The notes beneath the pieces were generated by a model. That model had not been told where the DNA came from and made no database searches. It saw nothing but the letters and a program-made list of their open reading frames with translations. 64,000 bases of DNA from a virus, in the IMG/VR virus record IMGVR_UViG_3300023179_009086, positions 12,607 to 76,606 of that record, one strand, 5' to 3'. This document shows positions 7,918-64,000 of the stretch, piece by piece; the first letter of the stretch is position 1, and each line of letters begins with the position of its first letter. The translations under genes and the position numbers were made by a program.

Positions 7918-7925
7918 AAAAATTA

Positions 7926-9509: not shown

Positions 9510-9559
9510 AGGAGTGCCCCCTTAGGATAATTATATCCTTCCTGCAGGAAAGTACCACT

Positions 9560-13005: not shown

Positions 13006-13011
13006 AACTAC

Positions 13012-15750: not shown

Positions 15751-15764
15751 GTTTTTCTCTTATT

Positions 15765-21030: not shown

Positions 21031-24000
21031 TTAAGCCGAGAAACTACAAGGAAATGGACCTTCAATAAAAACGCCAGTAGAAGTTGAGCCAGTAATAAAG
21101 AAGCAATCATCAGATTCTGATAAAATTACTTCTGGAACGCATTTACCAAGTCCAATTCTAGAAAGATCATTAATATTAATTGTTAAATCATTATTTTTAA
21201 ATCCAGATTTTTTCAAATAAACACCCAGATTTAAAACTGTTCTATTTTCAGTAATAACAGAGTCATATAGTATATTTTTTGTTTGTAATGTTAAAATTCC
21301 AGTAGATGGATCTAAAGTTGATCCTACTTTAAAAATAACTCCAGTTGTAATATCATAATAAATAATATTTAAAGATATTGAGTTTGTAATATTAAACGAA
21401 TTAAGCTCATCAGTTTCTGATGTTAAAAGAAAAGCCTTATAATATCCTGGCAAATGACCAGGAACTGAAAGCATACTTTTGATTGCATCTGTAACATCAA
21501 AACCAATGGTATCTGTTGCAATACCAGATATTGGTGCCAAAGATGAGATAATAGAAGTATTTGTAGATAAAATTAAATCCAAATACTTTGATAAATTATT
21601 TGCATTAATATTTTCATAAGGAATTAATTTAAAATTAGAACTTGTAATATTAAAATCTTGAGATGCAATAAAGTTAATTGTTGCTGATATAACTTCGGTT
21701 TTTGAATTTAAATTTAAAGGAAAATTAAAAGATAATTCATTTAATTTTGGTCCAGCATATCCAATTAAAATTTCAGAAGATGTAATTTCATTTGATACTT
21801 CCTCTTCATATGCTATGATAAAATCATTTGATAAAAAGTAAGTTTTATAAATATAAGAAGAAGAAGTTGTAACACCAGACGCTTCAGTTTTAAATATTAA
21901 ATTAGCAGCACCTTCACCAGGATTGGTAGAAAGTAATTCTCCAATTTTTATATATTCTTGTTCAAGAACTAATGAATTATTATTTTGATAATAGTAATAG
22001 GCAGTAGTAATATCATTAATTCTTCTTATTCTAAAATTAATGCTTTCATCCTCATCTTCTGGTGCAGGAATACTGTAATCAAATGCATAAATTTCAGAAG
22101 AACCATCATTGACAGAGCCGCTCCAGAAAATCTCTACACCATCTCCATTCCCAGACTGCCTCCATCCCAACTTTAAAACCGAGGTTCCACTATATTCATT
22201 ATTCATAGTAACTTGCATATAAGTCTGGATACTTCCTAATAATAATTTTGATGGGTCCCAGGAATTTCTTTTTCCAGTAAAAGAAATTGTAAAATCTCCT
22301 GTTAAATCTGGTTCAGCAATAGGTCTGGTTAATGTTGAATAAGTTGAGGTAGAGGTATTAACATTAATTTCAAAAGAAGAATATGTGGTATAATTATTAA
22401 TTGTAGTATTTCCATCATTAGAATATGATGGCCAAGAAGAAAATCCAGAAGAATATATTTCTGGATAAGAAGAGTTTAAAATAATATCATTACTAGAATA
22501 TGAAACCTCTGTCTCTGTAGTATAGCCATCTGCCGCATATCCATCGACTAAGGCATCTACATAAAGACTGGAAATTGCTTTTGATATTTTAACCCTTCCT
22601 AGTGATAAATCTGTAACACTACCTGAATCGTTGCAGCCGACTAATGTACCATCTGAATATCTCATGGCAGGATATCCTGCTGCAGTATTACAAGTTCCAT
22701 TATAAGATTTTATAAAAGATTCATAAATATTAATTGAACAATCATCAATAGATCCCGGTGGTAGTGGTAATAAAACATTAACATATTCAAAATCACCATG
22801 ATGAGGTACTCCTGGTGCGGAAAGAATATCACCATTAGGTATATATAAATCATTTGGTAAAACTTTTTGATTTTTAATAACTGGTGATTCACTTAATTCA
22901 TTAAAACAAACTTCATTTTCACATAAACAATTTTCTGTTTTAACTTCTAAAACAGCTTGTTCTACAAATCTTCTTAAATCAATAACATTTAATAAATTAT
23001 TAGAAAATAAATTCCCAGCAGATGTAATGGTCCAGTTTTTAAAATCTGCTGGTATATTAACTAATAAATTATTATCAGCAAAAGTATTAACTTCTGTACC
23101 AGAATAAACTATAAGATCAAAAGCAGAGGAACCAATAAAACTTACTGAATTACCATCTAGAGTTGTAACTAAAGCAGAGGCATTTAATCCAGTAAAAGAA
23201 ATTTCTGATATAAAATATTCTCCAGCATCACTTTCAGTTTCTGGAATAACAATTTTATCACCAGCTCTAATAATTCTTGTAGTCTCTTGGGAAATTACAC
23301 TAAAAGAAATAGCGTTAGTAGAGGTAGTGCAAACTCCAGTGTTAGCTATATCTTCAAAAATTAAAGGATAATTATTAACAGAATCAATATTAGAAAGTCC
23401 AATCTCTAAAACTGTAAATTCTTCTGGAATGGAAAAATTGATATACCCATCAATTGCATCCTCTATAATTGAAATATCGCTGCCATCAATTGATCCATCA
23501 TTATTTACATCTGATTTATAAAAATTAATTAAATCAATACTTCCATTTAATATTAAATTTTGAGTTACAGACGAGGTATAAGTATTTCCTGCTAATTCTA
23601 GTACAGAATTAAGGTCCTGATAAGTAATCTTTCCATCGGAATTTAAATCTGCAACATTTTGAACTGAACAAGAAATTGATGAAATTTTATATTGAGATCC
23701 ACAATTGCAACTGGTATCTGGAATAAAAATTCTATTTAAAATTGCTTTAGTTTTAATATCATTAGAAGGATTTATAAAATAAATTTTATCTGGAGTTATT
23801 TGTCCAACATAAGAAAATGTTCCAGAAATATCAGCTGGAGATCTATCATTATTATCTACAACATAACCTAAAATATTTGGATTTAAATCTAAAATAGAAT
23901 TTAATTCACTTTCTAATAGAATAGTAACACTATAAGAATCTAAAATTCTTGTAAAAGTATAATTTCCAGTTCTTGGATGAGCAATTGGTGTAGTAAATTT

Positions 24001-25527
24001 TTCAGATCTATCTAGAATAATATAATTTTTTTCTCCATTTATATTTTTTAATTCTATATCTTTTAATGTAAATGGAATTAAATTATTTCCTATATATTCT
24101 ATATAACTTGGAACTTCAAATTGAACTCCATCCTCAGAGAAAATTTTTCCACTAGCTATTTCTATTGTAGAAGTATGAAGTTCAAACCATAAACTTCTAT
24201 CGGAATCATCAACATATTTATTATTAACTATATCAAATTCTGTAAATAAAGTAGTTTTTAAATCATATTCTTCTTGAATGGTCAGGGCTTGACCATTCTG
24301 TTCTTTTTTATAAGCTTTATCATACCCCTGATACAATCTAATTGTACCTGTTGAGGTGTCTCCAACTCTTTTTATAATAAAACAATAATAAGAGTCTATT
24401 TCAAGGGATGGTTCTAAATTTGGATTTGCAATAAGTGTTGATGAGAAATCAAAATTAACAATAGTAGGAGTTTCTCCTAATTTTATACCCATTGAAATAA
24501 AATCATTATAAGAATAAGATGTCTCAACTAAAGATATTGCTTCTGGGTCAAAATTTATAAGATTTTCTGGAATAGCATCGGTAATACAGTTAGCAGCAGT
24601 AGTTAATTTGTGAATAGAAATAACTAAATTTCCAGAAAATTCTGAAGAAATAGAGGTATCAAGACCCATTAATAAAGATATATTTTGTAAACCATTTGTT
24701 TTGGCTAAAAACTTTTGACCATAAGCAGTAGCAGAACTTTCTCCGGCAGAAAATAATAATATTTCTGCAGGATCTGTTTCATAATAAATTTCACTTGTTG
24801 AAAAAGTTTCATCAAGTGCCTCTGAAAAAATATCTAACAAAGATAGTTCTTCAGAATAAGTTATAAAATTATTTAAATAAAAATTAGGACTTTCTATTTG
24901 AGAAATAGAAAGGGATTTTGGAAAAACTTCTATTGCATCAGATTCATAAATTAAAAGATCAATATTTTGTGATGATAAATAATCATAAGAACTAACAGAA
25001 TTATTGTAAAAAGAACTTCCTAATCCACCACTTAAGTTGTTAAAATATATAGCATATATATATTTATAATAATTAGAAGTTATTTTTTTTAAAGAATCTT
25101 CAAAATTTAAATATTCAGTAACAATTTCACCTCTAGAATCTAGTGGATTATATCTTGATCCTAGAATTATAATTTTTACTGGATAATTATTTTTAATAGT
25201 AGCATTCTTAAGTTCAAAAATAATTCTTTTTCCATATTCAGCATCAGAAGGCTGTCTGTCTAAATAGATTGGTTTACCATCAAATTTTCCGGCACTAATT
25301 ACAAACTTTGAAATATTTTCAGCATAAAAACCTGGATTACTTAATGTAAGAAGTATGCGATTTTCAATTGGATTATCTTTTACTAAACCACTGCCATGAG
25401 CAGAAGCCATATGATTAGATGTTAAACCCCTTAAATGGTTTTGCTCCTGATCTAAATCTGCTTCTGATAACTTTTGTCCATCAAAAAAGTTAACTCTTGG
25501 CACAATTGTTATATTACTTGTTGACAT
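21031..25527 (-). CDS. baseplate/tail-fibre-associated protein with dockerin-like domain
   Basis: N-terminal RVNFFDGQKL...DLDQEQ resembles fibre-attachment segments of contractile tails; duplicated DxNxDG Ca-loops. Start ATG 25527 has GGAGAG upstream. Confidence 0.65.
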   Translation of the reverse strand: MSTSNITIVPRVNFFDGQKLSEADLDQEQNHLRGLTSNHMASAHGSGLVKDNPIENRILLTLSNPGFYAENISKFVISAGKFDGKPIYLDRQPSDAEYGKRIIFELKNATIKNNYPVKIIILGSRYNPLDSRGEIVTEYLNFEDSLKKITSNYYKYIYAIYFNNLSGGLGSSFYNNSVSSYDYLSSQNIDLLIYESDAIEVFPKSLSISQIESPNFYLNNFITYSEELSLLDIFSEALDETFSTSEIYYETDPAEILLFSAGESSATAYGQKFLAKTNGLQNISLLMGLDTSISSEFSGNLVISIHKLTTAANCITDAIPENLINFDPEAISLVETSYSYNDFISMGIKLGETPTIVNFDFSSTLIANPNLEPSLEIDSYYCFIIKRVGDTSTGTIRLYQGYDKAYKKEQNGQALTIQEEYDLKTTLFTEFDIVNNKYVDDSDRSLWFELHTSTIEIASGKIFSEDGVQFEVPSYIEYIGNNLIPFTLKDIELKNINGEKNYIILDRSEKFTTPIAHPRTGNYTFTRILDSYSVTILLESELNSILDLNPNILGYVVDNNDRSPADISGTFSYVGQITPDKIYFINPSNDIKTKAILNRIFIPDTSCNCGSQYKISSISCSVQNVADLNSDGKITYQDLNSVLELAGNTYTSSVTQNLILNGSIDLINFYKSDVNNDGSIDGSDISIIEDAIDGYINFSIPEEFTVLEIGLSNIDSVNNYPLIFEDIANTGVCTTSTNAISFSVISQETTRIIRAGDKIVIPETESDAGEYFISEISFTGLNASALVTTLDGNSVSFIGSSAFDLIVYSGTEVNTFADNNLLVNIPADFKNWTITSAGNLFSNNLLNVIDLRRFVEQAVLEVKTENCLCENEVCFNELSESPVIKNQKVLPNDLYIPNGDILSAPGVPHHGDFEYVNVLLPLPPGSIDDCSINIYESFIKSYNGTCNTAAGYPAMRYSDGTLVGCNDSGSVTDLSLGRVKISKAISSLYVDALVDGYAADGYTTETEVSYSSNDIILNSSYPEIYSSGFSSWPSYSNDGNTTINNYTTYSSFEINVNTSTSTYSTLTRPIAEPDLTGDFTISFTGKRNSWDPSKLLLGSIQTYMQVTMNNEYSGTSVLKLGWRQSGNGDGVEIFWSGSVNDGSSEIYAFDYSIPAPEDEDESINFRIRRINDITTAYYYYQNNNSLVLEQEYIKIGELLSTNPGEGAANLIFKTEASGVTTSSSYIYKTYFLSNDFIIAYEEEVSNEITSSEILIGYAGPKLNELSFNFPLNLNSKTEVISATINFIASQDFNITSSNFKLIPYENINANNLSKYLDLILSTNTSIISSLAPISGIATDTIGFDVTDAIKSMLSVPGHLPGYYKAFLLTSETDELNSFNITNSISLNIIYYDITTGVIFKVGSTLDPSTGILTLQTKNILYDSVITENRTVLNLGVYLKKSGFKNNDLTININDLSRIGLGKCVPEVILSESDDCFFITGSTSTGVFIEGPFPCSFSA

Positions 25528-25585
25528 TAACTCTCCATAGTTTTTCAATAAGATTTTTATTTATTAATAGACTAAATAATTGATA

Positions 25586-28500
25586 TTAGCACGCCTTTCT
25601 TTTAAATTTTACAAGAACGTTAGTATGAGATGGCTTTAATCTATTAACTAAATATACAATTAAATCTTCTATTTCACTAGAGTTAATTTTACCAAAATCA
25701 TCAACAACCTCTATATCAAACTCATAAATACCCCTGATTAAATCTGTTATAGTAACATAATTATTGTTATTTTCAAATATTTCAAAATCATTAATATAAG
25801 ATGTATATAGATCCTCCTTTACTGGAAGTATAGTATTTAAATTAGCACTATAATTTAAATCTAAATAATTTCCAGAAGAATCTTTTATTTGTAATCTATC
25901 ATTTTTACTAATTCTAAAATTATCAATTCTAGATAAACAAGAATTAAATCCATCATATCTAGAACCTATATAAATTTGTTCCAGAGAATCTGTAATAGAA
26001 ATTATTCCATTTAAAACAGAGCTAGAATTAGTTAATCCATCTATAGCTAATTTTAGATAATCATTTCCTGTATTTATCTTCCATGCCGCAGATACTTTAT
26101 GCCAAGAATTTGAGATCCAATCAATAGGTTGATAAACAAAAGATTCAAAATATTTATTAGATATTTTAAAATATATTTTTTGATTTTCAAAATATATTTG
26201 AATTCTAGATTCATTTGAAGATTTTTCAAAATATTTTACAATAACTGGATCATTACTTATTAATTTAGTTTTTAGATAAATAATTTTTCCATCTTTTTTA
26301 AGAGTAGCACCACTAGCAAAATTATTAAAAACTCCAGTTCCACCTTCTAGTCTACCAGAAATTTTAGATCTAAAAATTTCATCATATCTATTAGTTTCAT
26401 AAATTAAAGAATCTTTTTTCTGAGGAAGGGTAATTGAAATAATTTTTTCTGCAGAAGTTGGTAGTTCAATAATACTAGTAGAAGATGGTGTAATAAAAGC
26501 AGTTTTTACATTATATGAATCAAAAATTACTCTTCTTTTATTATCTGTATCAGAAGATAATAATGGACTAATCCAAAATTCTATTGTTCCAATATTTTTA
26601 TCAAAAATATTAGGAGCACTATAAAAAATTGGATTAGTATTATAAAATTTACCAGAATACTTAAAATTATTATTTACGCTATTATAGCCAACAATTAATT
26701 CATTATTGCTTGCATATTTTGCTTCATTAAATAAAGGACCGCCTTCGGCTCTATGAGCTTCTACATAAGTTTCATTAGCAATACTATCAGTATAACCTAA
26801 TTTTTTCATTTCTGAAATAAATTTAATTTTATTATTTATAAAATTAGATAATAATTCTAAATCATTAGCATTTAATTTATATTTAAAATTATCTTTTGTA
26901 TTTAAAAATATTTTATTTCTAAGTCTTCTAATTTGCAAATCAAATGGATCATCAAAATGTGATAAGAAAATTGTTTGTTCATCAAGACAAGGTTTTTTAT
27001 TTGAAATATATTCTTCAGTAATATTTCTTGCAAAAGTACTGGCAGATTGATAACTTCTTATATCTCCAGACATTTCTGTAATAATTTTTACCTCATCTAA
27101 TAATCCACCTAATTTTTTATTACCTAAAATATCAGAACCTAAGAATATTTTTTCTCCAACTCTAGGTAATTTAATTTTTAAATAAGATGGATATTCAAAA
27201 AGATAACTACCAGATGGTAGCTTATACTCTACTTGGCCATTACTACCATAAGTGGTAATGTAGAATACACCATTAGAATATTTATAAATTTCTGCATAAT
27301 CTCCATTATTATTTTCATCTGTAATATTATCAGATTCAAAAATTGAAAATACTAATGGTTCATAATCAATATCTATAAGTTTAAAGTTACCACTAACTTT
27401 AGTTATCTTAGTGTAAAAATTAATTAATTGATATATTTTATTATCAACTATAGAAAGATATTCAGAAGCAAATCCTTCTGAAGTTTCTCCTTCAATATAC
27501 AAATAATTATCATCTGAATAACCATCTTTACAGTAATTAATATTATCTGATTCAAACTTAATAGAAATTAATCTTCCATAATTTAAAATTTGATAAATTG
27601 AACTTGTATCTAGATTATTGTTAATTTCAAATGAAAAAATATTTTCATTTAGCGATCCAGAAGGTATAGTATCATCTAGTAAAATTCTTTTAATTTTAAC
27701 AGATTTTAAATCTATTGGTTTTGACATATTGGTAATAAAACCAGAAACTTCATTTAAATATTCTGGACCTAAAATACTATTACTTGAATAATTTATTTTT
27801 TCAGAAATTTTAGATTTGTTTAAACCAAAATTTTCAATCCAAATATCAAGATCTGATACCTCAATAGAAGGTACCCAATTACAATCTATATCTTGATATA
27901 AAAAGTCTATATTTCCATTGTTTAAATTAATTCTATATTTTGGATTAATAACATTATTTTCTACAATAGAAATTAAATTATTATCAACCGTATAAAGTAC
28001 TCCACCAAGCTCCGTTGTAACTTTCTGGCAGTCTGTTTGATAAATTTCAAACTTAGTGGAAGAAAAAATAGTATTAAGTTGATTTCCAAAAATATTTGGT
28101 GGGCGATAAAATTCTATATTTGTAGCAGATGTTGTAAAATAATATGGTGTTAAATTTTCAATATCTAATAAATAAATAGTCTTATTATCTACAGAACCAA
28201 TAACAAAAGCTTTATTATTTAGTTCAGAAGCTAAATTACCATTTTTAATAATAATTGTTTTTCCAATATCATCATTAGTAAAGGAAGATGATAAGGAATA
28301 AAGATAATTTTCTCCAGCTAAAATTTGACCATCATTATATACTTCATAATAAGAAATTTTAGTTTCAGAAAAATCTTGAATTACATCTCTAGCAATATCT
28401 CCAACTTTTGCGTCTCTCCAGGGTGAAAGATATCCGCCAAATCTATATAATGATGGAGTTTCTTTGCCATCGATAAAAAGGTGCATTTCATCTTGTTGAT

Positions 28501-31500
28501 ATTCTGTATTAATTCTCCAGGAGGCTCCAATGTGATGAAATTCTCCAGGTAAAAAATCTTTAATGTTGGAAGAAATATTGTAAAAATTTTTATCTTTTTT
28601 AAATAAAGAATCATAAATTCTAAAATTTAAATATCCATAAAAATCTTTATATATAGAAATTCTATTTTGATATAAATCTTCTCCAGAATCAAAAATATAT
28701 CTTTCCAGATCAGAAACAAGCACAAGTGTATCAATATCAGATCCGGATTCCATATATCCATAAGCATCAAGATATCCATCTGCTTTATTATAAAATTTAA
28801 AATCAATTAAGTTAGTTTGAATTAATAACTTATCAGTATCTTCTAAATTTGTATCAATTTTACTAGAATTTAAATTTAATTCAATATAATCTATATCAAT
28901 AGATATTTGATTATAAAGATCAATAAAATTATCTGAAACTATATCTTTATCATTAAATTTAATATAAATACCATTTTCTATAATATTATCACAATTATAA
29001 GTATACTGATTAAAGGTAGAATATTTAATTCTTGAAATAATATTATTTTTGTAATAAATTGTAATTAAATTATCATATTTATTTATTACAACTTGTAAAT
29101 TATAAAAATTATTATCTGCCCAATTAAATGGAATTAAGTCTAAAATATCTTTAGAAATACCATCTATAATTGCTAAGTATTTTTGACTTGAACTAGCTGC
29201 AAGTGAAATTTTAATATCTTTATTTCCATCAAAGATTTCTGTAATTGTTGTTCCTATTAAATTACCAGTAATATTTCCTGAGAATTTTCCAGAGTTTGAT
29301 CCAATGATATTGGAATCAAAATCTAAAACTTTAAAAGAAATTTCATATTGTAAATCTTGAATGCAATTTAATGGCAAATAAAGATAACTATTGGAATCTT
29401 CAATATTATTAATTCTATAAACATTTGATATTAAAGATGTATTAAAGTTTCCAACTTTTTTCCAATTATTAATATTATGTTCTGTTCCACCAATAATTGT
29501 ATTAATTAAATCACTTCCAAAATTATAAATTGATTTCCATCCACCATTTTCTAATAAAGATTGTCCGCAAAATCTATATTTTGCATCACAAGAATCTATT
29601 GGACATTCTGAATCATCCAACATAGATTTTGCATATGAAAATCCACCATCTGTGGTAATTTTGCCTTCAATATAATCTTTTAATTCTATTGATTCATATT
29701 CAATATTATAACCATCAAGTGCGTATCCATCTGGACCAATAGATACTATAGATTGATTTGGAATAACTGATTTTATTTTCCAGCTTCCAACATTATTTTC
29801 ATCTACTTTACAATTTTCATCAAACCAAATATATATTGATTTATTATCAGTATTTATATCTGGTATACCATAAACATTTTTGCTATCTTTATTTAATGTA
29901 AAAATAAAATTATTAGGATTACTTTTTCCAGAACCAATATAAATATTGCTTAAACTTAATCCTTCTTCAATTAAATAATTAAATTTAGAAATATTTATTT
30001 TATTTTTTACAACAGGATCTAAACATCCAATAAATATTTTATTATTTAAATCAGAAATTCCATCAATTTCGGAATTTAAATTATATTCTGAATTAAACCA
30101 AGAATTTAAATTTAAGAAATCAAATAATTCAGAATATTGTCCTGCAGACAATAAATCAGAATAAGCAATATTAAAATTATAATTATTTATTTTTAAATTA
30201 ACTTGATTTAATATAGGCTGTCTAAAAATATCTAAATTTAATTCTTCAGATGTAAAATTTACCAAAATTGGTCTAGGATCAAAGTTATATAAATATTCTG
30301 AATTAAATTTTTCTCTAATAATAGAAATAACTGGAGTTAATATAATTCCATTTCCACTTGGTCTAGTTGAATTAATTACTTCACTACCAAGCTGGGTAAT
30401 ATATTGTTGATTATCCGGGATCCTATTAACATAAAATCCATAAATATTTCCATCATCCGGGATAAAATCTATTTCATTTTCATTTATATCAATAAAAGAT
30501 ATTATTGAATAAACTCTACCATCTTCTAAAACATATTTACAGCCATTAATTTTATCATTAAGAATATTAAATTTTTCAGATAAATATGAAATATTTATTT
30601 CTTCTGTTAATGTTATTTTAATTTTATTAAAATTTTCATCTCTAAATAATTCTAAAGAAGAAATATCATCATATGTAATACAGTTACAATTTTTTATAAT
30701 ATATGGACCATCAAAATTGGGTGTCTCATTTTGAGAAATATTTTCATCTTTTATTTTTAAAATATAAATTTTATCTGTTTCAGAATTTATAATTGGAGAT
30801 AAAGCGCCAGCTATTAAAAGTACTTTATTTTCATCTCCTACTGAAAATACAAATGGACTGGAGTAATAAGATAAGAATATTTCCAAACCATCGCCTAGGA
30901 AGCCCCTGGACGACACTGGGAGGCCAGATATAAAACCACCCATACCAAGGGTGGACAACCTCTCTGCTAGCATCCCAGAGTCATTTCTGTAGAAACTAGA
31001 AAGGGAAGCGGATGATCCGGTAAGGGTTGCTGAAAATGAGATGGAGTGTTTTGAAAATTTAGAAGAATTTAATCTATCATGATATTTTGTAATTCCAAAA
31101 GGACCTATTTTTTCTTCATTTTCAATATATTGGTAATTGTAAAGAGATAAATTATTTCCCGTCCAATCAGTGATACCATACCTATCATCTGACATAAATA
31201 ATTCAAAATTTTGATCTTTAAAAATATTAGAATTAAATTTTAAATTAAAATAAATTTCAGCCATTTTTGAAAAATCAAAAGTAAGATTAGCATCATTATT
31301 GATTCCATGCCAATCATTTCTAATCCAACAGCTAAAAGTACCTTCATCTAAATTTATTCCCGTCTTTGCCGGAGTTGTAATAACAACATCATTATCAATT
31401 AAAACTCCAGAATCAAATTTTCCAGATTCAAATTTTAAAATTCCATTATATTCTATATTTCCGGGATTTAATAAATCTCTTCCCAAAATCCATGATCCAA

Positions 31501-34500
31501 AAAATGATTCTGAAATTTCTGGAGTCTGTTCTGTAAATTTTTGAATTAAATTTTCAAAAGAAGAAATTACAGGACCTCGAGAAAATGCTTCAAGAGTACC
31601 TTGTAATGCTTTTCTGTAAATTTCTCTATCAGTATTTTGTAAAAATTTTGTAAAAAATGGAATTTTAGTTAATAATCCAAAATTATTTTTTAGCGAATCT
31701 CTTAAAGCACCATATTTATAAGTAACATAATATGTTTCAGATTCTAAAATAGAATTATTAATTTGCCAATTAATTTCATTATCACCATATTCATATGAAA
31801 CAACTAGATTATCTGTAGTTGCTGTATAATTATAATAAATTGAACCAGAAGTATACCATGTTGCTAATCTTGTGCCTGGTAATGGAATAAAATCATTTAA
31901 ATAAGTAATTTGAATTAAATCATAATTATTAATTAAACATTCTTCTGAAATATTAATATTAACATTAGATCCTACTTCTGTTATATTAATTTCATTAACA
32001 ATTTTAGCCACACCAATAGTAGGTAATATATATCCAGAAATATCCGGAAGGTTAGAAACAGTTGTTTCTCCGGTAAATATATCATAACTTAAAATTTTAA
32101 ATTTTAAACCAATACTATCTTTTACATAATCATTTAATAAATTAATATTTAAATCAACATCTAAATAAATTAAACTTTCAGTATTTAAATCTTCAACATT
32201 ATAAATTTCTGTATTAAATTTTAAACCATCTAAAGTTTGATCTGATATTTCTAAATTTAAAGTTAAATTTTTAATACTATAAATAAATCCAAAATTTTCT
32301 TTTGGAATAGAAAAAGTATAACCAAAATTATTTTTTGCTTTAAAATTTTTATTATTTTTTAAATCCAAATAGTTATTAATAATATTAAAACTAGGTAAAT
32401 ATAAATTTTTACCATTATCAACAATAGATTCTAAGGCATCAGATTTAGAACTTGCTTTTTCTCGATAATTAAAATTTAAAGAATTAGAACCAAAAATAGA
32501 ACTTAATTCATATAATCCATAAAATAAAGTAGGGGTTAATCTTGTATAAATTAAATAATCTTCTGTAATTATATTTGTTTCTATTTCATTATTATTAAAA
32601 TCTAAAACGGTAGTTTCATTTGGCAATTCAAAACAAGAATTTAAATTTTTAATATAAATACCATTATTTATAGAAGTTTTATCAGTTAAATAAAAATAAT
32701 CTTTATCTGAAGAAACTTTCTTTCTATAAATACCATTACATGTAATAATATTAACATTATCCGATATTATTTTAGCATGTTCGTAAGAAGCATAACCTAA
32801 ATCTATATCATAATTTAAACCTACAGAAACATGTATAATTCCATTATTATAATCAACAATATAATCGCCAATATTTTGTAAATTAGCTAAAGCTATTGTA
32901 TTTATAGATAAATTTTCTTGATTTTTAATTAATTTAGATTTAGTAGAAGAATAAAATTCATTATCTGTAAAAAAATATTTTTCATTAATAAAGTTTTTTT
33001 CATTTAAAATTAATGATGAATCAACAAAAGTTCCAATTGCATCATTTTTTTGATTTAAAATATTTTTATTATTTAATTGTATTGAAAGGCAATATATTCC
33101 AATATAATATTCTTGATTTAAAATGGGTAAATCAGAAGAACTTGTTAAAGCAAAAGAATTTATATTTTCATTACCATCTGGATCTGCAAAAAATTTAATA
33201 TTCATATTTTGAACTTCACCATTGATATCTTTTAAAAGATATTCAGAGGAGTTCAAATTAATTAAATGAGAAGGAATAGGTGGACTAATAATAATATTAT
33301 TAAGACTTAAATTATTTGTTATTTTAAATTTAAAAATAGAATTTAAAAATTTAAAATAAGGAAATATTTTTTCATTTTGTATTTTATCAAAATTTGGAAT
33401 ACTGTTATTTATAGAAGAAAATTTTGGAGGATTTAAACCAGAAAATGTTATTTCATTTTTATAAAATGAAATAGGCTGATAAGTTTCTCCAGTTGTCTGA
33501 TTATATACAGAAAATACTTTAGTAATTGGTGCATTCTTTGTTTTTAAAGTATAAGTTGATAATAAATTTGATTCAACTTGTTCATTTAAAACTTCAATAT
33601 GTATTTCTGGTTTATAATCAATATTTTCAACAAATTGTTGTTGATAACTAAAAGATATTGTTGCAATATTTTGCTGCAAAGATCTCCCAGAAGTTGCAAC
33701 AAAATCATTATTATCAGTATAATAATCTAAATCTTTAGTATAAGTTTTTCTATAGAAATAATTAACATAGTATTGATAACTACTAGTTCCAAAAAGATTT
33801 TTATCTCCAAAAACAATTACTTCTCCAGTTTGATAATTGACAGTATATTCACCAGATGAAGATGGTAATTTGGAAGTATTAAATGGAATTTCATATAAAA
33901 ATATATTTCCATCTATACCATTAATTGAAAGATCTCCTATAGTTCCAAGTTCTCCAGATTCATTTGTAATTGGTGCATTTTTTAAAAAAAATCTTGTTGA
34001 TTCTTGTGGAATTGATTCATAAGAAACTTTTTCAATATTATAAACTAAAATAGAATCTATATTAATTTTTTCAGAAAAATCTTTATACAAATAAGAAATT
34101 TTAATTAAATCACCAGGAGATGGAAGAATAAACCCAGATGATTCAGATAATAAAATTTGATTAGAATTTAAAGAATTATAAGAAAAAGCTCTTTTTGGAT
34201 CATATCTATTATCTTTAATAGAATAATTTAATTTTTCAATATTATAAATATATTCAGTTTGTTCACATAAAGCTGTTGCTTCTTTAATTATTGATAAACT
34301 TTCTAATTTAATAATATTATTTTTTTCTAATGTTAATAAATATCCTGAAATATTTGTATTTAAATTACTAAAAATAATTTCTTCTGAATAAAATTCTTGT
34401 TGTAATGAAATTGGATAATCTGAAACAATTTTTTGAGATAATATTTTAGAATTAGAATTAAAATATAATTCCTTAAAAATTAAATTCCGACCGGCCGGGA

Positions 34501-35065
34501 ACTTTGAGATAGATTCAACCATATAAGCATTTTCATGTGCCAATCGATCTTTAGCACCTGCACCCCTAATTCTGAATTCATCCTCTACTCTTACAGAAAT
34601 ATAGTTATCAGAAAGAGCTTCACCAATATGTTTTTCTACTTGATAAAGCTCTTCTGCTCCCACAGATAAAATATTTTTAAGATTAGAACCATCTAGATTA
34701 TAAGTCTTTGGTAGATTCAAAAAAATTCTATCTCTGATTGGATTATAAGAATCTGAACCTACAAAGTAGATAGATCTACTGATATCATCATTAGCCAACT
34801 GGTCGCCATCTTCAGCTAAAAATTTAATCTGATCTGTGTCTTTTAAAGTTAATAAATAAAGATTTCCAGAAACTTGTGGATTAGTTGTTAATAATATAGA
34901 AGTATCAGAAACAAATACATTTAATATTTTTATAGCATCTTCTAGTCCAACGGAAGAGTTTACTTCAAAGTTATCTACAGTAATTAATGTAGATAATTTT
35001 TTATTAAAACCTATTTCTAATTGGGTAGATGATATTACCTGTAATGTATTTGGTCTTAAAGCCAT
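25586..35065 (-). CDS. giant baseplate wedge protein (gpI/gp7-like) with Ig-like and LamG/concanavalin-like domains
   Basis: Follows gpJ. YRKALQG...RGP segment and C-terminal LKPSHT motif of gpI-like proteins. LamG motifs GTIEFW, WHKVSAAW, IYIGS, IDNFRIS. Confidence 0.7.
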   Translation of the reverse strand: MALRPNTLQVISSTQLEIGFNKKLSTLITVDNFEVNSSVGLEDAIKILNVFVSDTSILLTTNPQVSGNLYLLTLKDTDQIKFLAEDGDQLANDDISRSIYFVGSDSYNPIRDRIFLNLPKTYNLDGSNLKNILSVGAEELYQVEKHIGEALSDNYISVRVEDEFRIRGAGAKDRLAHENAYMVESISKFPAGRNLIFKELYFNSNSKILSQKIVSDYPISLQQEFYSEEIIFSNLNTNISGYLLTLEKNNIIKLESLSIIKEATALCEQTEYIYNIEKLNYSIKDNRYDPKRAFSYNSLNSNQILLSESSGFILPSPGDLIKISYLYKDFSEKINIDSILVYNIEKVSYESIPQESTRFFLKNAPITNESGELGTIGDLSINGIDGNIFLYEIPFNTSKLPSSSGEYTVNYQTGEVIVFGDKNLFGTSSYQYYVNYFYRKTYTKDLDYYTDNNDFVATSGRSLQQNIATISFSYQQQFVENIDYKPEIHIEVLNEQVESNLLSTYTLKTKNAPITKVFSVYNQTTGETYQPISFYKNEITFSGLNPPKFSSINNSIPNFDKIQNEKIFPYFKFLNSIFKFKITNNLSLNNIIISPPIPSHLINLNSSEYLLKDINGEVQNMNIKFFADPDGNENINSFALTSSSDLPILNQEYYIGIYCLSIQLNNKNILNQKNDAIGTFVDSSLILNEKNFINEKYFFTDNEFYSSTKSKLIKNQENLSINTIALANLQNIGDYIVDYNNGIIHVSVGLNYDIDLGYASYEHAKIISDNVNIITCNGIYRKKVSSDKDYFYLTDKTSINNGIYIKNLNSCFELPNETTVLDFNNNEIETNIITEDYLIYTRLTPTLFYGLYELSSIFGSNSLNFNYREKASSKSDALESIVDNGKNLYLPSFNIINNYLDLKNNKNFKAKNNFGYTFSIPKENFGFIYSIKNLTLNLEISDQTLDGLKFNTEIYNVEDLNTESLIYLDVDLNINLLNDYVKDSIGLKFKILSYDIFTGETTVSNLPDISGYILPTIGVAKIVNEINITEVGSNVNINISEECLINNYDLIQITYLNDFIPLPGTRLATWYTSGSIYYNYTATTDNLVVSYEYGDNEINWQINNSILESETYYVTYKYGALRDSLKNNFGLLTKIPFFTKFLQNTDREIYRKALQGTLEAFSRGPVISSFENLIQKFTEQTPEISESFFGSWILGRDLLNPGNIEYNGILKFESGKFDSGVLIDNDVVITTPAKTGINLDEGTFSCWIRNDWHGINNDANLTFDFSKMAEIYFNLKFNSNIFKDQNFELFMSDDRYGITDWTGNNLSLYNYQYIENEEKIGPFGITKYHDRLNSSKFSKHSISFSATLTGSSASLSSFYRNDSGMLAERLSTLGMGGFISGLPVSSRGFLGDGLEIFLSYYSSPFVFSVGDENKVLLIAGALSPIINSETDKIYILKIKDENISQNETPNFDGPYIIKNCNCITYDDISSLELFRDENFNKIKITLTEEINISYLSEKFNILNDKINGCKYVLEDGRVYSIISFIDINENEIDFIPDDGNIYGFYVNRIPDNQQYITQLGSEVINSTRPSGNGIILTPVISIIREKFNSEYLYNFDPRPILVNFTSEELNLDIFRQPILNQVNLKINNYNFNIAYSDLLSAGQYSELFDFLNLNSWFNSEYNLNSEIDGISDLNNKIFIGCLDPVVKNKINISKFNYLIEEGLSLSNIYIGSGKSNPNNFIFTLNKDSKNVYGIPDINTDNKSIYIWFDENCKVDENNVGSWKIKSVIPNQSIVSIGPDGYALDGYNIEYESIELKDYIEGKITTDGGFSYAKSMLDDSECPIDSCDAKYRFCGQSLLENGGWKSIYNFGSDLINTIIGGTEHNINNWKKVGNFNTSLISNVYRINNIEDSNSYLYLPLNCIQDLQYEISFKVLDFDSNIIGSNSGKFSGNITGNLIGTTITEIFDGNKDIKISLAASSSQKYLAIIDGISKDILDLIPFNWADNNFYNLQVVINKYDNLITIYYKNNIISRIKYSTFNQYTYNCDNIIENGIYIKFNDKDIVSDNFIDLYNQISIDIDYIELNLNSSKIDTNLEDTDKLLIQTNLIDFKFYNKADGYLDAYGYMESGSDIDTLVLVSDLERYIFDSGEDLYQNRISIYKDFYGYLNFRIYDSLFKKDKNFYNISSNIKDFLPGEFHHIGASWRINTEYQQDEMHLFIDGKETPSLYRFGGYLSPWRDAKVGDIARDVIQDFSETKISYYEVYNDGQILAGENYLYSLSSSFTNDDIGKTIIIKNGNLASELNNKAFVIGSVDNKTIYLLDIENLTPYYFTTSATNIEFYRPPNIFGNQLNTIFSSTKFEIYQTDCQKVTTELGGVLYTVDNNLISIVENNVINPKYRINLNNGNIDFLYQDIDCNWVPSIEVSDLDIWIENFGLNKSKISEKINYSSNSILGPEYLNEVSGFITNMSKPIDLKSVKIKRILLDDTIPSGSLNENIFSFEINNNLDTSSIYQILNYGRLISIKFESDNINYCKDGYSDDNYLYIEGETSEGFASEYLSIVDNKIYQLINFYTKITKVSGNFKLIDIDYEPLVFSIFESDNITDENNNGDYAEIYKYSNGVFYITTYGSNGQVEYKLPSGSYLFEYPSYLKIKLPRVGEKIFLGSDILGNKKLGGLLDEVKIITEMSGDIRSYQSASTFARNITEEYISNKKPCLDEQTIFLSHFDDPFDLQIRRLRNKIFLNTKDNFKYKLNANDLELLSNFINNKIKFISEMKKLGYTDSIANETYVEAHRAEGGPLFNEAKYASNNELIVGYNSVNNNFKYSGKFYNTNPIFYSAPNIFDKNIGTIEFWISPLLSSDTDNKRRVIFDSYNVKTAFITPSSTSIIELPTSAEKIISITLPQKKDSLIYETNRYDEIFRSKISGRLEGGTGVFNNFASGATLKKDGKIIYLKTKLISNDPVIVKYFEKSSNESRIQIYFENQKIYFKISNKYFESFVYQPIDWISNSWHKVSAAWKINTGNDYLKLAIDGLTNSSSVLNGIISITDSLEQIYIGSRYDGFNSCLSRIDNFRISKNDRLQIKDSSGNYLDLNYSANLNTILPVKEDLYTSYINDFEIFENNNNYVTITDLIRGIYEFDIEVVDDFGKINSSEIEDLIVYLVNRLKPSHTNVLVKFKRKAC

Positions 35066-35072
35066 TTTTGCC

Positions 35073-38000
35073 CTAATTAATTCTAAATTTATCTTTTGAA
35101 ACTGCGTTTATAATAATTGTACCAGGAATAATAGTCTGATTCTCTAAGGCATAAATAAAAGCTTTTCTTCCAGTTTCACCAGACTTATTAAATAAAGAAA
35201 TATTAACTGAATCTACGCCTCTTACTCCTGCGGCAATAGAAGAAACATCAGAATAATCAACTCTTGATCCTAGCGAATTAGTAGTTAATAAACCAGTAAT
35301 TGCTGTAATAACATTTTGTTCTATAGAAGTTGCTTCTGTTAAAAAATCATCATTTATTAAAATAGTTCCAGATACATCTACTGATATTGCAAAAGCCTCT
35401 TTTACTAAAACATCTGCAGTAATTGGTCTAGAAGCCTCAACTGCTTGGGTTGCATCAATAACAAGTCTATTTAAATTATATGTAATTTGCAATCTTTCTC
35501 CATTTTTTGGAGCCAAAAATGAATAATCAACATTATAATTTGTAAAAGAAATTGGCTGAGTAAAGGCTGTAGCTTCAAGCGTTCCTTTTAAAATTCCAGA
35601 TGCATTTTTAAAACCATTTAAAATTGATATAGAGTTAATTCTTCCAAAAATATTATTTGTAATTTTTACTCCAGAAGTTCTAGCATAAATATCTTCTTGC
35701 TCATTGGTATTAAAAATTTGACAAGATACGATAATGGTATCGCCAGAGTTAAATGAAATAGGATTATTAGAATGAGATGGTATAGAAAATTTTAAAGATG
35801 ATAACAAAGAATCTTTAGAAGATCTATTTTGATCATATAAATTATTTAATAATCCATAACCGTGAATATCCAAATCATAAGAAACGCCACCTGATAAGTA
35901 AGAAGCTTTATCTATTTTTGCAATACCATATGTATCTGGAATTGAAGATATATTTAATTTTGATGATAAAGCATTTGTAATGTCAATAATATTACCATTA
36001 GTATTAATTCCAGATATTTCTAAATTATATCTATTAAAAGAAATGCCTTGTACTTTTATTTTTCCTGGATTAGTGATCGAAGAAAATACAAATCTTAACT
36101 GAGCCGGACCATATCTAAATACAGAAGATGGTATTGAATTAATAAAATTAAAATCAATTGGTTGATTTAAAATATCTATAGTTCCACCAATGCTGATTAA
36201 TGTATTGGCATTGGCAATAGATTGAATAGGCAAATTAACTAAATCTGTTTGAGAAATTAAAAAGTCTATTTTAGAAACATAAGAAACATAAATAGGTGAT
36301 TGGTTTGCAAATAAACTATCGACTAAAGTATTAATACCCTGAGCGTCTCTAGCCTGCTCACTTGGAAGAGTAATTATATTATTGGAAAAAGTTCCATCGG
36401 TCCCTTCAAAGTTATATAATTCTATTTTATTATAGAAAACTTCAACAGCCTCACCGGCAGAGCCCATAGAATCTGTAGGTAGAATAATTTTTTTCCCAAT
36501 AATACTACCATTATTTAATGTTGTATTATATAATTCTAAACTATCAGAAGATCTTCTAATAGAAATTACATTATTAATTGTTTCATTAAGAACTGATAAA
36601 TCTACACCAAAACTTTCTACTCCATTTACTGTAATAATTGATATTATTGAGTTTATAGAAGATTCAGTCCAAATAGAAGCAATAGAAGTAATATTATTTA
36701 ATATTTCAACTTGATACTCTAAAGCGTCATTACTTAATGTAATTAAAGATTCTTCTTTAAAGATACCATTAGGAGTAGTCCAATCTATAACATCATTACT
36801 AGATCTTGTTTTATAAACAGATATATTGTCATATCCTGCAAAATCAACGGCAGGATCAAAATATTTTCTCCAAATATAATTAACAGAAATTACATCAGAT
36901 GGAGTAGGTAGTTGTCTACCAGAAATTGTAATTTGTCCGTCCATATTAAGACCAGTTTTTTCATCAAAATTTTGATCAGAAATAATATAAACTTCACCAG
37001 TAGTTAAATTTTGTACTCGGCTAACTCTAATAACTGGTTTGTGAATAAGATTTATAATATTTCTATTAGTTTTATTAACAAATGAAGCTTCATTAGTTTC
37101 TGAAATATCTAAATAAACATATTCTAAATTATTTATATCTGTAAAATTTAAAGAATCAATACTATTAATTGTACCTTTAGAAATTGATTCTCCAAGAACT
37201 TTTTTAGATCCAGAGATAAAATGAATTTTATCATAACCAAATGGACTTCCGCCAACACTATCTGAGACATCTTTTATTAGTTCAAAATTTCCAATTGTTT
37301 CACCATATTGGTTAATATATTTTTGAACTAGCTCTCCAGATTGACTACCTGTAATTGAAATTACATTGCTGACCGGTTGAAGTGGTAAATTATTATTTTT
37401 TAAAGCTAAAAATCTTCTTTCTTCTATTGTTCTAGTTAAATCTTGATTTTGTTGTCCAAGAACATAGTCATTTTCCTCTCGAGTGGGATCTCCTTTTCCA
37501 GATAGATCTGTAAAAATATATGATTCAGAAATTGATTCAGTTTTAGTTCCAAGAACATAAATATCTACTTTTCCACCATTTCCTGAATTTAAAATTCTAG
37601 TTCCACCGTCAGAAGTTGCTATAGTTTCAGTTCCATCTCTTAACATAAGAGAGCTTCCTGGTTCCACTACAATAGCATCTTGAATTCCATTCAATGATAA
37701 AACTGCATTTCTATAACCAGCACTAGTTCCAATATTTGCCCCACTGAATATAGACAAAATTCTAGATCTAAATCCATCATCTCCTTCGCGATTTTGACCG
37801 CCAGAAAATGAAGATAGATTTGTTACAACTAATCCATTAAGATTGACATCCAAAGAAATCATTTGAAGGGAAGAGATATTTCCGGCAGTACCAATTCTTG
37901 TACATTGAACTGGAACTTCCAAAGCATAATTAGCAGTTATACCAGCTAAATTTAAAGATTTTTTTAATCTATTAGCATTAGCACTCAACCTGCCCTTATC

Positions 38001-38384
38001 TCCAACGGACATGGAATAATTTCCAAGAGTTTTATAAGTTAGACCATTTCTAGAAGTTGCTGTAGTACCAGTTGGAATTGGAATATCTGAAGATAAATTA
38101 TTTGTACAAATAACAATAAATCCAGAAGCTGGAGATCCAGTTTTTCTACCTATACCAAAATTACTAGCCAATAAATCTAAATCTTGACCAGAAGAAGATG
38201 CTAAAGATTGTTTTTGAGATACAACGTTTAAAACATTGTAAAATCTAGCAATTTGGTCAGCTGGAAGATCAATAAAAAGATCTCTAGAAACACTTCCAGG
38301 CTTGGTATCTAAATTTGGTTGGCTAATTTTAAGCCTTTCAATCATAGAATTTACGATATCACTAAAACCTCTAGAACTAGCCAT
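35073..38384 (-). CDS. baseplate J / gp6-like wedge protein
   Basis: PGSVSRDL, GQDLDLLASNFGIGRK, VQC...GTAGN, GGQNREGDDGFRSR, G.VDIYV, GVDSV. Confidence 0.9.
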   Translation of the reverse strand: MASSRGFSDIVNSMIERLKISQPNLDTKPGSVSRDLFIDLPADQIARFYNVLNVVSQKQSLASSSGQDLDLLASNFGIGRKTGSPASGFIVICTNNLSSDIPIPTGTTATSRNGLTYKTLGNYSMSVGDKGRLSANANRLKKSLNLAGITANYALEVPVQCTRIGTAGNISSLQMISLDVNLNGLVVTNLSSFSGGQNREGDDGFRSRILSIFSGANIGTSAGYRNAVLSLNGIQDAIVVEPGSSLMLRDGTETIATSDGGTRILNSGNGGKVDIYVLGTKTESISESYIFTDLSGKGDPTREENDYVLGQQNQDLTRTIEERRFLALKNNNLPLQPVSNVISITGSQSGELVQKYINQYGETIGNFELIKDVSDSVGGSPFGYDKIHFISGSKKVLGESISKGTINSIDSLNFTDINNLEYVYLDISETNEASFVNKTNRNIINLIHKPVIRVSRVQNLTTGEVYIISDQNFDEKTGLNMDGQITISGRQLPTPSDVISVNYIWRKYFDPAVDFAGYDNISVYKTRSSNDVIDWTTPNGIFKEESLITLSNDALEYQVEILNNITSIASIWTESSINSIISIITVNGVESFGVDLSVLNETINNVISIRRSSDSLELYNTTLNNGSIIGKKIILPTDSMGSAGEAVEVFYNKIELYNFEGTDGTFSNNIITLPSEQARDAQGINTLVDSLFANQSPIYVSYVSKIDFLISQTDLVNLPIQSIANANTLISIGGTIDILNQPIDFNFINSIPSSVFRYGPAQLRFVFSSITNPGKIKVQGISFNRYNLEISGINTNGNIIDITNALSSKLNISSIPDTYGIAKIDKASYLSGGVSYDLDIHGYGLLNNLYDQNRSSKDSLLSSLKFSIPSHSNNPISFNSGDTIIVSCQIFNTNEQEDIYARTSGVKITNNIFGRINSISILNGFKNASGILKGTLEATAFTQPISFTNYNVDYSFLAPKNGERLQITYNLNRLVIDATQAVEASRPITADVLVKEAFAISVDVSGTILINDDFLTEATSIEQNVITAITGLLTTNSLGSRVDYSDVSSIAAGVRGVDSVNISLFNKSGETGRKAFIYALENQTIIPGTIIINAVSKDKFRIN

Positions 38385-38394
38385 AAAATACCTC

Positions 38395-38823: not shown

Positions 38824-38888
38824 TTTTCAACCTAATTATCTATAGAAAAATAATAGATAAATATAGGTAAAATTATGCATTTAATTAT

Positions 38889-48913: not shown

Positions 48914-48944
48914 AGAATTTATTTTACTTTTTTAAATAAATATT

Positions 48945-51383: not shown

Positions 51384-51384
51384 T

Positions 51385-56592: not shown

Positions 56593-56605
56593 AGCAGGAT
56601 TATAC

Positions 56606-57673: not shown

Positions 57674-57710
57674 AATTAATCAAACTTTATTACTATAAAA
57701 TATTTATTTT

Positions 57711-59953: not shown

Positions 59954-59959
59954 TTTTTT
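59913..59959 (-). promoter_or_regulatory. programmed -1 ribosomal frameshift signal (A AAA AAA + 14-bp stem-loop)
   Basis: GTA AAA AAA TAA is followed by CAGAGGGUCCAGAG-9 nt-CUCUGGGCCCUCUG. Confidence 0.85.
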
Positions 59960-60399
59960 ACTTCGTCAATCTCAATTTGAGAATTTGATTCTTCTAAAAG
60001 TTCTTCATAATTTTTAAATAATTTATTTACAACAGATAATTGTAAATTTTTAATAACAGATATTTTTTTATCATATATATCCAAATATTCTTCTGATTCC
60101 TCAGCAAGGTCTTCTAAAGGTGTTCCGTTAACTTTATCAATGGCAAAGGCTATTGATATAATTTTTGCATTAAGAAGTCTAAGGTCATCTGGTAACTTTA
60201 TTACTTTTGCAACCATAATTTTTTGATCTTCTGCAGTAAGGCTTTTCATTAAAAAACTACAATCACCACAGATAACATTTTTTTCTACTCTTCCTAAAAA
60301 AATAAGATCTTTTAAAGTTTTAATACTCATTTTTTTTTCTTCTTTTTTTTGTTCAATATTTTCTTTTTTAGAATCTAATGAAACAGATGTTTTTGACAT
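59950..60399 (-). CDS. tail assembly chaperone (G)
   Basis: 149 aa between tube and tape measure; GGAGAG SD; ends at the slippery site. Confidence 0.85.
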   Translation of the reverse strand: MSKTSVSLDSKKENIEQKKEEKKMSIKTLKDLIFLGRVEKNVICGDCSFLMKSLTAEDQKIMVAKVIKLPDDLRLLNAKIISIAFAIDKVNGTPLEDLAEESEEYLDIYDKKISVIKNLQLSVVNKLFKNYEELLEESNSQIEIDEVKK

Positions 60400-60426
60400 T
60401 TAAAACTCTCCAAAATAGATTATACT

Positions 60427-60464
60427 AAAAAAAAAACCCGTTACCAAATTTTGGTAACGGGTTT
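60427..60464 (-). terminator. intrinsic terminator after sheath-tube
   Basis: AAACCCGTTACCAA / TTGGTAACGGGTTT inverted repeat with an A10 run (U-tract on the minus strand). Confidence 0.88.
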
Positions 60465-60485
60465 AAATTTGATCTTTTTATTTTA

Positions 60486-61124
60486 TTAGAATGCCGACTT
60501 AATAAGACCTGGGAAGTCCAAGCTTCCTCTGTAGGTACCGTAATCTGCGGCTTGCTCAATAGCGTCAATCTGACGACCTTCTGAGCCAAGATCTCTACCG
60601 CCACCGACACCCTGACTGCTGGCGACTGGTGCGCCATTTCTTTCGGTGCTAATAGATTCTGCAGTAATGCTAGCATCTTCTGTAATGGTGTAATCATTAG
60701 TGGAATAAGTCTTACCTAATGAACCAAACCAACAATTGTGATAAGTAGTTACTATTGATCCACCCTCTTCTTCTGTACCCGTAAATCTATCAATAACTAC
60801 AATATCAAAAGGAATTCTTTGAGAGTGAATATTTCTAAACCCTCTGGCCATAGACTCTGGTAATGAAAGTCCATCAAATACAATTCTATTAACAGTTAAA
60901 TCTATTGTTGTTGGACCCTGTGGTACTGCCTCAATTACTCCATCTGTTCCAACTTCACTAATTCTTTTAATTGGTCTTTGTTGTCTTTCTTGGAAACTTT
61001 GAATGGCACCAACTGGTTGATTGTTTACATAAACAATAATCTGGGTGCTTAATCCAGTTCTTGTTTTTGCACCAGTTACTGCTTCAGAATCAAATAATGT
61101 TCCTGTATATGGATAAGATGCCAT
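60486..61124 (-). CDS. tail tube protein (gp19-like)
   Basis: 212 aa after the sheath; VGAIQSF...EVG...EAVP...LTVNR, PFDI, YHNCWF; AAGGAG SD. Confidence 0.85.
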   Translation of the reverse strand: MASYPYTGTLFDSEAVTGAKTRTGLSTQIIVYVNNQPVGAIQSFQERQQRPIKRISEVGTDGVIEAVPQGPTTIDLTVNRIVFDGLSLPESMARGFRNIHSQRIPFDIVVIDRFTGTEEEGGSIVTTYHNCWFGSLGKTYSTNDYTITEDASITAESISTERNGAPVASSQGVGGGRDLGSEGRQIDAIEQAADYGTYRGSLDFPGLIKSAF

Positions 61125-61137
61125 TTGAAATTACTCC

Positions 61138-64000: not shown

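Follow-up and report, generated by a model that had tools for sequence, protein, structure and literature searches.

The sequons of protein glycosylation, among them N-x-S/T, the bacterial D/E-x-N-x-S/T and the D-S/T-A/I/L/V/M/T of Bacteroidetes, are ordered, residue-specific words of three to five residues that are gained and lost quickly in surface loops. The tripeptide Asp-Gly-Tyr (DGY) is like them in these respects in the tail proteins encoded by a 64,000-nucleotide stretch of viral DNA (hereafter the window; positions 12,607 to 76,606 of IMG/VR virus record IMGVR_UViG_3300023179_009086) and in those of its relatives. Each known word is read by one transferase and the acceptors are Asn, Ser or Thr, whereas in DGY both the word and its acceptor residue would be new. 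A literature search found no paper on a DGY motif, nor on DGY with tail fibre and phage. Based on sequence comparison, we suggest that DGY is an undescribed surface tag that may mark sites of sugar attachment to tyrosine.

Mycobacteriophage virions are glycosylated by phage-encoded glycosyltransferases (Freeman et al. 2023, cited in PMC12619734). As cited there, soluble phage enzymes are encoded beside structural genes, as in the window, and act on structural proteins in the cytoplasm, either ahead of assembly or while it proceeds. Unlike here, the glycans are placed at the C-termini of capsid and tail-tube subunits, and no DGY-type sequon or tyrosine linkage is described there. The candidate targets in the window are distal tail proteins.

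Attachment of sugars to tyrosine has a bacterial precedent, to which the preliminary description of this DNA pointed: the O-glycosylation of S-layer proteins (Paenibacillus alvei SpaA, Thermoanaerobacter), where a surface-array protein carries the sugar-tyrosine linkage (PMC2943079). There, the glycan is built on a lipid carrier, exported, and transferred by a membrane O-oligosaccharyltransferase, and the review describes the modified tyrosines without any flanking sequence motif (PMC2943079). None of these lipid-carrier, export or oligosaccharyltransferase parts was found among the 20 open reading frames (ORFs) of the sugar-enzyme island that follows the tail genes here. Giant viruses also bring their own soluble genes for making and adding sugars, in the case of the chlorovirus capsid and the Megavirinae fibril clusters, and these are thought to coat the particle. 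However, they infect eukaryotes and use other acceptor sites, and the match of one window enzyme to chlorovirus B736L is weak.

DGY in the virion proteins of a phage clade

The window covers the final 64 kb of a 76.6-kb IMG/VR contig that is estimated at 23% of its genome, so the source, an uncultured lake jumbo phage, probably has a genome of ~330 kb. The preliminary description had counted nine DGY copies in three structural proteins, where composition would predict about one. All nine are present as described, positions 22522 and 63639 are indeed the limits of the outermost DGY codons, and the computed expectation for the three proteins is 1.28. The proteins, with lengths in amino acids (aa), are:

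61138..63999, minus strand: tail sheath gene, 5′ end cut by the contig end (phrog_2839, E 3e-18)
25586..35065, minus strand: 3159-aa baseplate-distal giant protein, first of the DGY-rich pair
21031..25548, minus strand: 1505-aa distal tail protein, second of the DGY-rich pair

Taken alone, the window shows a borderline excess. For the three proteins the nominal P value of 8e-6 rises to 0.065 once Bonferroni-corrected for 8000 tripeptides, and 1.3% of shuffles yield some tripeptide as extreme as DGY. The DG dipeptide is itself ~1.8x enriched in them, and a first-order Markov model expects 3.1 copies versus the 9 seen (P 0.005). Over all structural proteins of the window the count is 9 versus 2.66 expected, and DGY ranks ninth among tripeptides. 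The three proteins were picked post hoc, and the two tandem pairs are non-independent events. The tenth DGY of the window lies inside a glycosyltransferase (13713-14627).

A sheath search found 70 related loci, from five of which (G001–G005; sheath identity 53–89%) the tail modules were fetched, and a pattern search found 79 more, with guanine-plus-cytosine (GC) contents of 27–48%. The preliminary description named a lack of significant enrichment as an outcome that would refute it; instead, DGY is enriched 9–17x across about 170 homologues, in virion proteins only. Counted over 69 non-identical loci, the first protein of the pair has 401 DGY versus 44.8 expected and the second has 260 versus 15.6; upstream baseplate proteins have 63 versus 16.1 and downstream enzymes 11 versus 9.7. 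The excess in independent sequences has P < 1e-200. The carriers are a large clade of uncultured jumbo phages with genomes of about 300–450 kb. No cultured relative of the 3159-aa protein was found, the sheath has only remote matches in cultured phages, and a 361-aa glycosyltransferase encoded beside the pair has weak matches there to glycosyltransferases of Streptomyces phages.

The enrichment is specific to the word. In distant homologues DGY is raised 11x, versus 1.3x for DGF, 0.9x for DGW, 0.7x for NGY, 0.4x for EGY, 0.6x for DAY and 0.5x for DSY. Shared ancestry was discounted by counting the distinct alignment columns at which each tripeptide starts. By this measure DGY, which starts at 81 distinct columns, heads the list of 3402 tripeptides with 2.12 columns per expected occurrence (median 0.55, 99th percentile 1.07), and the five other orders of D, G and Y, scoring 0.29–0.63, are not enriched. 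At conserved sites D, G and Y are lost together, with Y changed to F in just 1 of 31 partial losses. In addition, 37 of the 53 columns with isolated DGY have it in only one or two sequences, which points to repeated recent gains. DGY is almost certainly a real short linear motif under protein-level selection, an ordered and residue-specific word that is over-represented in its target proteins, as a sequon is.

The Gly codon varies among the window copies (GGG, GGA, GGC, GGT), and units of one and the same array differ in synonymous codons. This variation indicates selection on the peptide rather than on DNA or recent slippage, and a motif at the DNA level is ruled out. The window has just three out-of-frame copies of GAYGGNTAY, two of them on the coding strand and the third opposite.

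Genome-scale counts show where the word is found. In G005 (332 kb, 99% complete), the region outside the structural block has 16 DGY versus 13.1 expected (~1.2x). Counts in G006 (301 kb; its sheath is 40% identical) are 32 versus 3.5 for the tail block, 11 versus 1.1 for a second block that includes collagen-like fibre proteins, and 3 versus 4.2 for the first 120 kb of the genome. In the 48.6-kb structural region of G008, which represents a third clade, DGY is the top tripeptide (27 versus 2.4, P 3e-19), with DGF at 3 versus 3.6 and NGY at 1 versus 2.2. The G008 copies are spread over 17 different proteins rather than concentrated in two as in the window, and a single fold or binding site could hardly account for a word that unrelated proteins have in common. 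G009, from a sister clade (sheath 45% identical; 43.8-kb contig), has no DGY in 13.4 thousand residues of tail proteins versus 2.1 expected. Its sheath has KGY at the second sheath site, and the contig stops inside the homologue of the 3159-aa protein, before the glycosyltransferase slot; a search for a longer contig from this clade found none.

The DGY proteins of G008 are mostly unannotated and encoded upstream of the sheath, and are presumably neck, whisker, fibre or head proteins. G006 encodes three adjacent paralogues (L206:10440-15759, minus strand; 490, 725 and 397 aa) with a common N-terminal MAL.SP...FNSDGYE..VKDG that places DGY at residue 14, and two collagen-like fibre proteins nearby have a common DGY at residue 41. 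In G011, where the gene order after the big tail protein differs, a 154-aa protein encoded right after it (L289:5587-6051, minus strand) has DGY at residues 46, 54 and 57.

Setting of the sites in the tail proteins

Burial of the sites was a further outcome that the preliminary description had named as refuting. Most are predicted otherwise: 6 of the 7 sites in the two large proteins fall in predicted loops with a predicted local distance difference test (pLDDT) score of about 60 or less, a placement derived from predicted monomers rather than assembled tails. Alignments are consistent with this: around isolated DGY sites the gap fraction is 0.48, versus 0.20 around other tyrosines (P 3e-32).

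The 3159-aa protein carries four sites and a lectin-like domain:

29708..29731, minus strand: tandem DGY, residues 1779 and 1784 (PDGYALDGY)
28754..28783, minus strand: ADGYLDAYGY, residues 2095-2104, with DGY at 2096
28196..28843 (limits approximate), minus strand: ConA/LamG-like lectin jelly-roll domain, with the array in its first loop
27518..27526, minus strand: DGY2514 (YCKDGYSDD), residue 2514

Its 90 homologues, down to ~25% identity, have 548 DGY versus 54.6 expected, with (DGYx)n arrays, and the orthologues in G001–G005, in which the window's sites recur, have 4–7 DGY each. In the window, ADGYLDAYGY is what is left, in degenerate form, of a (DGYx)n array that varies across the family: in G001–G005 its place is taken by tandem arrays such as VDGYSDGYSDGYDDGYDGY, the column is DGY in 43 of 59 homologues, and the arrays of relatives have 2–7 units. 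They do not form a collagen-like Gly-X-Y repeat, being mostly of period 4, at most ~7 units long, and mixing periods 3 and 4. The longest array observed, DGYDGYDGYDGYDGYFGYDGYDGY (residues ~2040-2076 in IMGVR_UViG_3300037488_001895), has a period of 3 instead of 4, and its codons differ per unit. Of the other sites, 1779 is DGY in 22 of 59 homologues and 1784 in 7 of 59, and 2514 is DGY in 19 of 59, with a gap in 39 others and a doubling to DGYxDGY in some relatives.

In an AlphaFold2 (AF2) model of residues 1740-2620 (mean pLDDT 76), all four sites fall in loops that connect strands: sites 1779 and 1784 lie in a loop at 1772-1795 and the array lies in a loop between two strands, both with pLDDT < 50; site 2514 is in a loop with pLDDT of about 60. 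The lectin-like assignment of the array-bearing domain is supported by a Foldseek probability of 1.0 to the Emp47p carbohydrate-recognition domain and the lectin domain of Vibrio cholerae sialidase. Homologues have a common consensus there (NRFSIYKDG.GYLNFRI ... HHIAASW ... DEMHLFIDG), and PF13385 is precomputed on most of them; Pfam made no such call on the window protein itself.

The 1505-aa protein probably starts seven codons inside its frame, because database copies have 1498 aa. It carries three sites and one recognizable module:

23443..23451, minus strand: DGY700 (EDAIDGYINF), residue 700
22522..22545, minus strand: tandem DGY-x2-DGY, residues 1002 and 1007 (VDGYAADGY; VDALVDGYAADGY), followed by a Ser/Thr-rich stretch
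23452..23655, minus strand: dockerin-like double calcium-loop module, residues ~632-699 (DLNSDGKITYQD ... DVNNDGSIDGSD plus helix), ending right at DGY700

The 89 orthologues, at 37–100% identity, have on average 2.6 DGY versus 0.33 expected. All three sites recur in 71–76 of them and are at the same places in all five of G001–G005. Tyr is kept in 75 and 74 orthologues at residues 1002 and 1007, respectively; at DGY700, the D, G and Y are conserved in 74, 89 and 71, respectively. In the AF2 model of residues 600-1100 (mean pLDDT 76), the tandem pair falls within a segment (992-1028) with pLDDT < 50.

DGY700 has a different setting. Like type I dockerin and EF-hand domains (DxDxDG), the module before it has two loops with flanking helices, and D-G is part of that signature. 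Pfam Dockerin_1 scores 19.6 bits where its cut-off is 22.9, EF-hand_5 is a second match, and about 20 orthologues carry a precomputed PF00404. The helices of the module are modeled at pLDDT > 90, and a Foldseek search with the fragment gave the double-dockerin structure 8x39 and nothing beyond the dockerin match. However, DGY700 is not within a 12-residue DxDxDG loop: the loops read as given above, and DGY comes after the next helix, immediately following residues 689-699 (model residues 90-100) at pLDDT > 90. The other eight window sites have no DxDxDG context.

The sheath carries the two remaining sites, in what is predicted to be its outer N-terminal domain:

63631..63639, minus strand: site 1 (PCVDGYTVA), residue 62 of the 61138-63822 frame
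63481..63489, minus strand: site 2 (GDYLCVDGYTSVEI; CVDGYT), residue 112 of the 61138-63822 frame

The frame is open to base 63999, and the upstream sequence (SAPAERWT / …VLDVVDSSAPAERWT; 63823-63999) is conserved in G001, G002 and G005, so that the TTG at 63822 is not the start and the residue numbers 62 and 112 are arbitrary. Site 1 is DGY in relatives to ~70% identity and beyond that DGF, DGV, DGL, DAY or DSY. That Phe, Val or Leu can stand in for Tyr suggests a position for a hydrophobic strand residue, with no specific need for tyrosine. Site 2 is kept as DGY in most relatives down to 52% identity; it may resemble a transthyretin-like “GY” strand, for which Pfam gave no match. The 641-aa sheaths of another clade lack the inserted domain of site 2 and have 2–3 DGY in their first 35 residues.

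A syntenic glycosyltransferase and its sugar island

All window genes are on the minus strand. In the order of transcription, the contractile sheath is followed by several giant proteins, a baseplate J-like protein, the 3159-aa protein and the 1505-aa protein, then by ~17 kb of glycosyltransferases and sugar-nucleotide enzymes, and finally by tubulin and a UvsW-like helicase. The genes flanking the pair are:

35073-38384, minus strand: baseplate J-like gene (PF04865 and phrog_6), which the 3159-aa gene follows
19918..21003, minus strand: 361-aa type 4 glycosyltransferase (GT4; Pfam Glycos_transf_1), directly downstream of the pair
3988..19921, minus strand: rest of the glycan-building island, with GT1, GT2, GDP-mannose dehydratase, GlmS-like, UDP-glucose dehydrogenase and methyltransferase (Pfam)

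The 361-aa protein is a GT4 retaining glycosyltransferase by its sequence features, and apparently an active one. It matches PF00534 at 40 bits (cut-off 26.4) and a generic GT4 model of NCBIfam, and has a GT-B C-terminal domain in which EX7E (E253-E261) is conserved in 45 orthologues; an Arg-Lys pair is conserved too. The nearest solved sequence is chlorovirus B736L (3oy2, E 3e-5), and the match covers the C-terminal half of the GT-B fold only. Of 54 informative loci, 52 encode an orthologue (E 1e-43 to 1e-205) one to four genes downstream of the DGY-rich pair, and contig ends truncate the remaining two. These orthologues are 30–78% identical across clades with GC contents of 27–48%. No relative without it was found among the loci that reach the slot; five low-DGY or atypical contigs end before it, and a wider baseplate-J search gave the same family. 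By its distribution the gene looks like part of the core of the tail module, not like an accessory, and occupies the usual slot of a tail-fibre chaperone.

The island beyond this gene varies. Islands follow the pair in both clades examined, but their enzyme content differs: in all five close relatives an island of GT1 type begins to appear ~40 kb downstream of the sheath gene, and the G006 island in the same slot has GT4, GT2, GT11 and pyruvyl transferases. A Pfam scan of the 20 ORFs at 360-21003 found soluble GT1 and GT2 enzymes, sugar-nucleotide enzymes, a methyltransferase, tubulin and a helicase, and no oligosaccharyltransferase, lipid-carrier initiating enzyme, flippase, polymerase or exporter. 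One island protein of 241 aa (13012-13737, minus strand) had no Pfam or NCBIfam match at the thresholds used.

What might read the motif

The preliminary description had proposed that DGY loops are either acceptor sites for the adjacent glycosyltransferases or a docking motif for a decoration protein. The word-like properties of DGY (order and residue specificity, joint loss, repeated gains, and presence in unrelated G008 proteins) fit both ideas, and tyrosine glycosylation agrees with all of the computational tests; glycosylation of tyrosine and action of the neighboring enzymes on these proteins gained no support of their own. Because DGY behaves as a word that is read, and because the only universally linked candidate reader is a glycosyltransferase, we favor tyrosine glycosylation as the single most likely mechanism, while judging it somewhat short of probable. 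That an enzyme reads DGY, that tyrosine is the acceptor and that the modification is a glycan are all steps that we infer.

The proposed sequence of events would be as follows. DGY, displayed on flexible loops and in short (DGYx)n arrays, would be recognized in the cytoplasm of the infected cell by a soluble phage enzyme. The candidate reader is the syntenic 361-aa GT4, which would place the first sugar onto the tyrosine hydroxyl. The variable downstream transferases and sugar-tailoring enzymes would then extend it, possibly yielding a strain-specific glycan coat on the tail periphery. Put together, we tentatively propose that DGY is the sequon of an undescribed cytoplasmic tyrosine O-glycosylation, in which a soluble GT4 starts a strain-variable glycan on outer tail, baseplate and fibre loops, clade-wide in aquatic huge phages; the full chain is possible rather than probable.

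Several observations weigh against this proposal. The S-layer precedent uses membrane oligosaccharyltransferases (PMC2943079). The synteny of the GT4 is universal in the family and thus cannot discriminate between explanations; possible targets of the island also include Ser/Thr-rich stretches, other proteins and the host. Other known tyrosine O-glycosylation is the work of GT-A toxins, and we know of no GT4 or other GT-B enzyme that glycosylates tyrosine. The remaining giant tail proteins of the window (2662, 1735, 1103, 812 and 678 aa) have no DGY at all, and other large tail proteins in six genomes have a total of 2 versus 7.2 expected; either these proteins are internal, or DGY is no general mark of the surface. 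Non-virion proteins show no avoidance of DGY in G005 and G006. Three DGY of the short sheaths fall within the N-terminal 35 residues, which in other sheaths make up the inter-subunit arm and would be buried. Finally, two sites plainly look structural: DGY700, which in the model caps the dockerin-like helix, and sheath site 1, which across aligned relatives appears tolerant of Phe, Val and Leu. It follows that not every copy need share one role.

DGY could instead belong to intrinsic binding loops, Tyr/Asp-rich and either resembling complementarity-determining regions or calcium-assisted, through which lectin-like domains bind host glycans. Loop number and length would then vary with host range, and the sugar genes would be linked to the tail proteins only through a host-surface theme. 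Such loops would account for the placement of the main array in a ConA/LamG-like jelly-roll loop, for its variation from 2 to 7 units among relatives, and for the position of the pair as the most distal tail proteins. The second protein also has calcium-loop modules, and in G006 one such loop, DVDGDGYITTND, contains a DGY. Binding sites, however, are local, yet isolated DGY occurs at 53 columns and in 17 unrelated G008 proteins. The order of the residues matters beyond composition, since permutations are not enriched, and Phe, Trp, Asn and Glu are unused as substitutes. We consider this explanation possible but rather unlikely.

Two further alternatives are more doubtful still. In the first, nothing reads DGY: D-G forms a beta-turn or helix C-cap and Tyr starts a strand or packs on the helix. 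The position of DGY700 after a helix, with Gly invariant in 89 of 89 orthologues, the tolerance of sheath site 1 for Phe, Val and Leu, the ~1.8x enrichment of DG and the strand-like residues after many sites all fit such a turn. But a turn should also raise NGY, DGF, DGW, DGV and DGI, which stand at 0.7–1.5x versus 11x for DGY. Other giant tail proteins of these phages, no less beta-rich, have the 2 versus 7.2 noted above. Moreover, the sites lie in indel-rich, low-confidence loops rather than conserved core turns. As a general account of the motif, the turn is quite improbable.

In the second, DGY is a docking tag for a decoration, assembly or chaperone protein, or the site of another modification such as tyrosine sulfation or phosphorylation, and the glycosyltransferases are bystanders. 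The properties that favor a trans-acting reader favor this option just as they do glycosylation, and the N-terminal module common to the three fibre-like G006 paralogues, with its DGY at residue 14, could be a piece for attachment. On the other hand, no candidate binding partner was identified, and universal synteny with the pair singles out one enzyme only, a glycosyltransferase. This option, too, seems a long way from likely. Chance, or a compositional artefact of picking three proteins, is out of the question for practical purposes: although the window excess fades against all structural proteins and under the Markov model, it is reproduced in independent sequences and the orthologous sites are kept to 37% identity.

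Should a phage enzyme read DGY, no short sequon for modifying phage particles would have been described before it, and the case would be a rare one of modification directed at tyrosine. The motif would then explain why 17–40 kb of soluble sugar enzymes are encoded next to tail genes, and its three letters would suffice to tell, by sequence alone, which proteins of uncultured huge phages face outward. As the sequon of a tyrosine O-glycosylation, it would bring a new acceptor word, a new pairing of enzyme and residue, and a new kind of phage surface coat. The DGY loop and the 361-aa GT4 form a testable candidate pair of substrate and enzyme, whose expression needs no culture of the phage. Even without a reader enzyme, a tripeptide that is repeatedly gained in the surface loops of unrelated virion proteins needs explaining.

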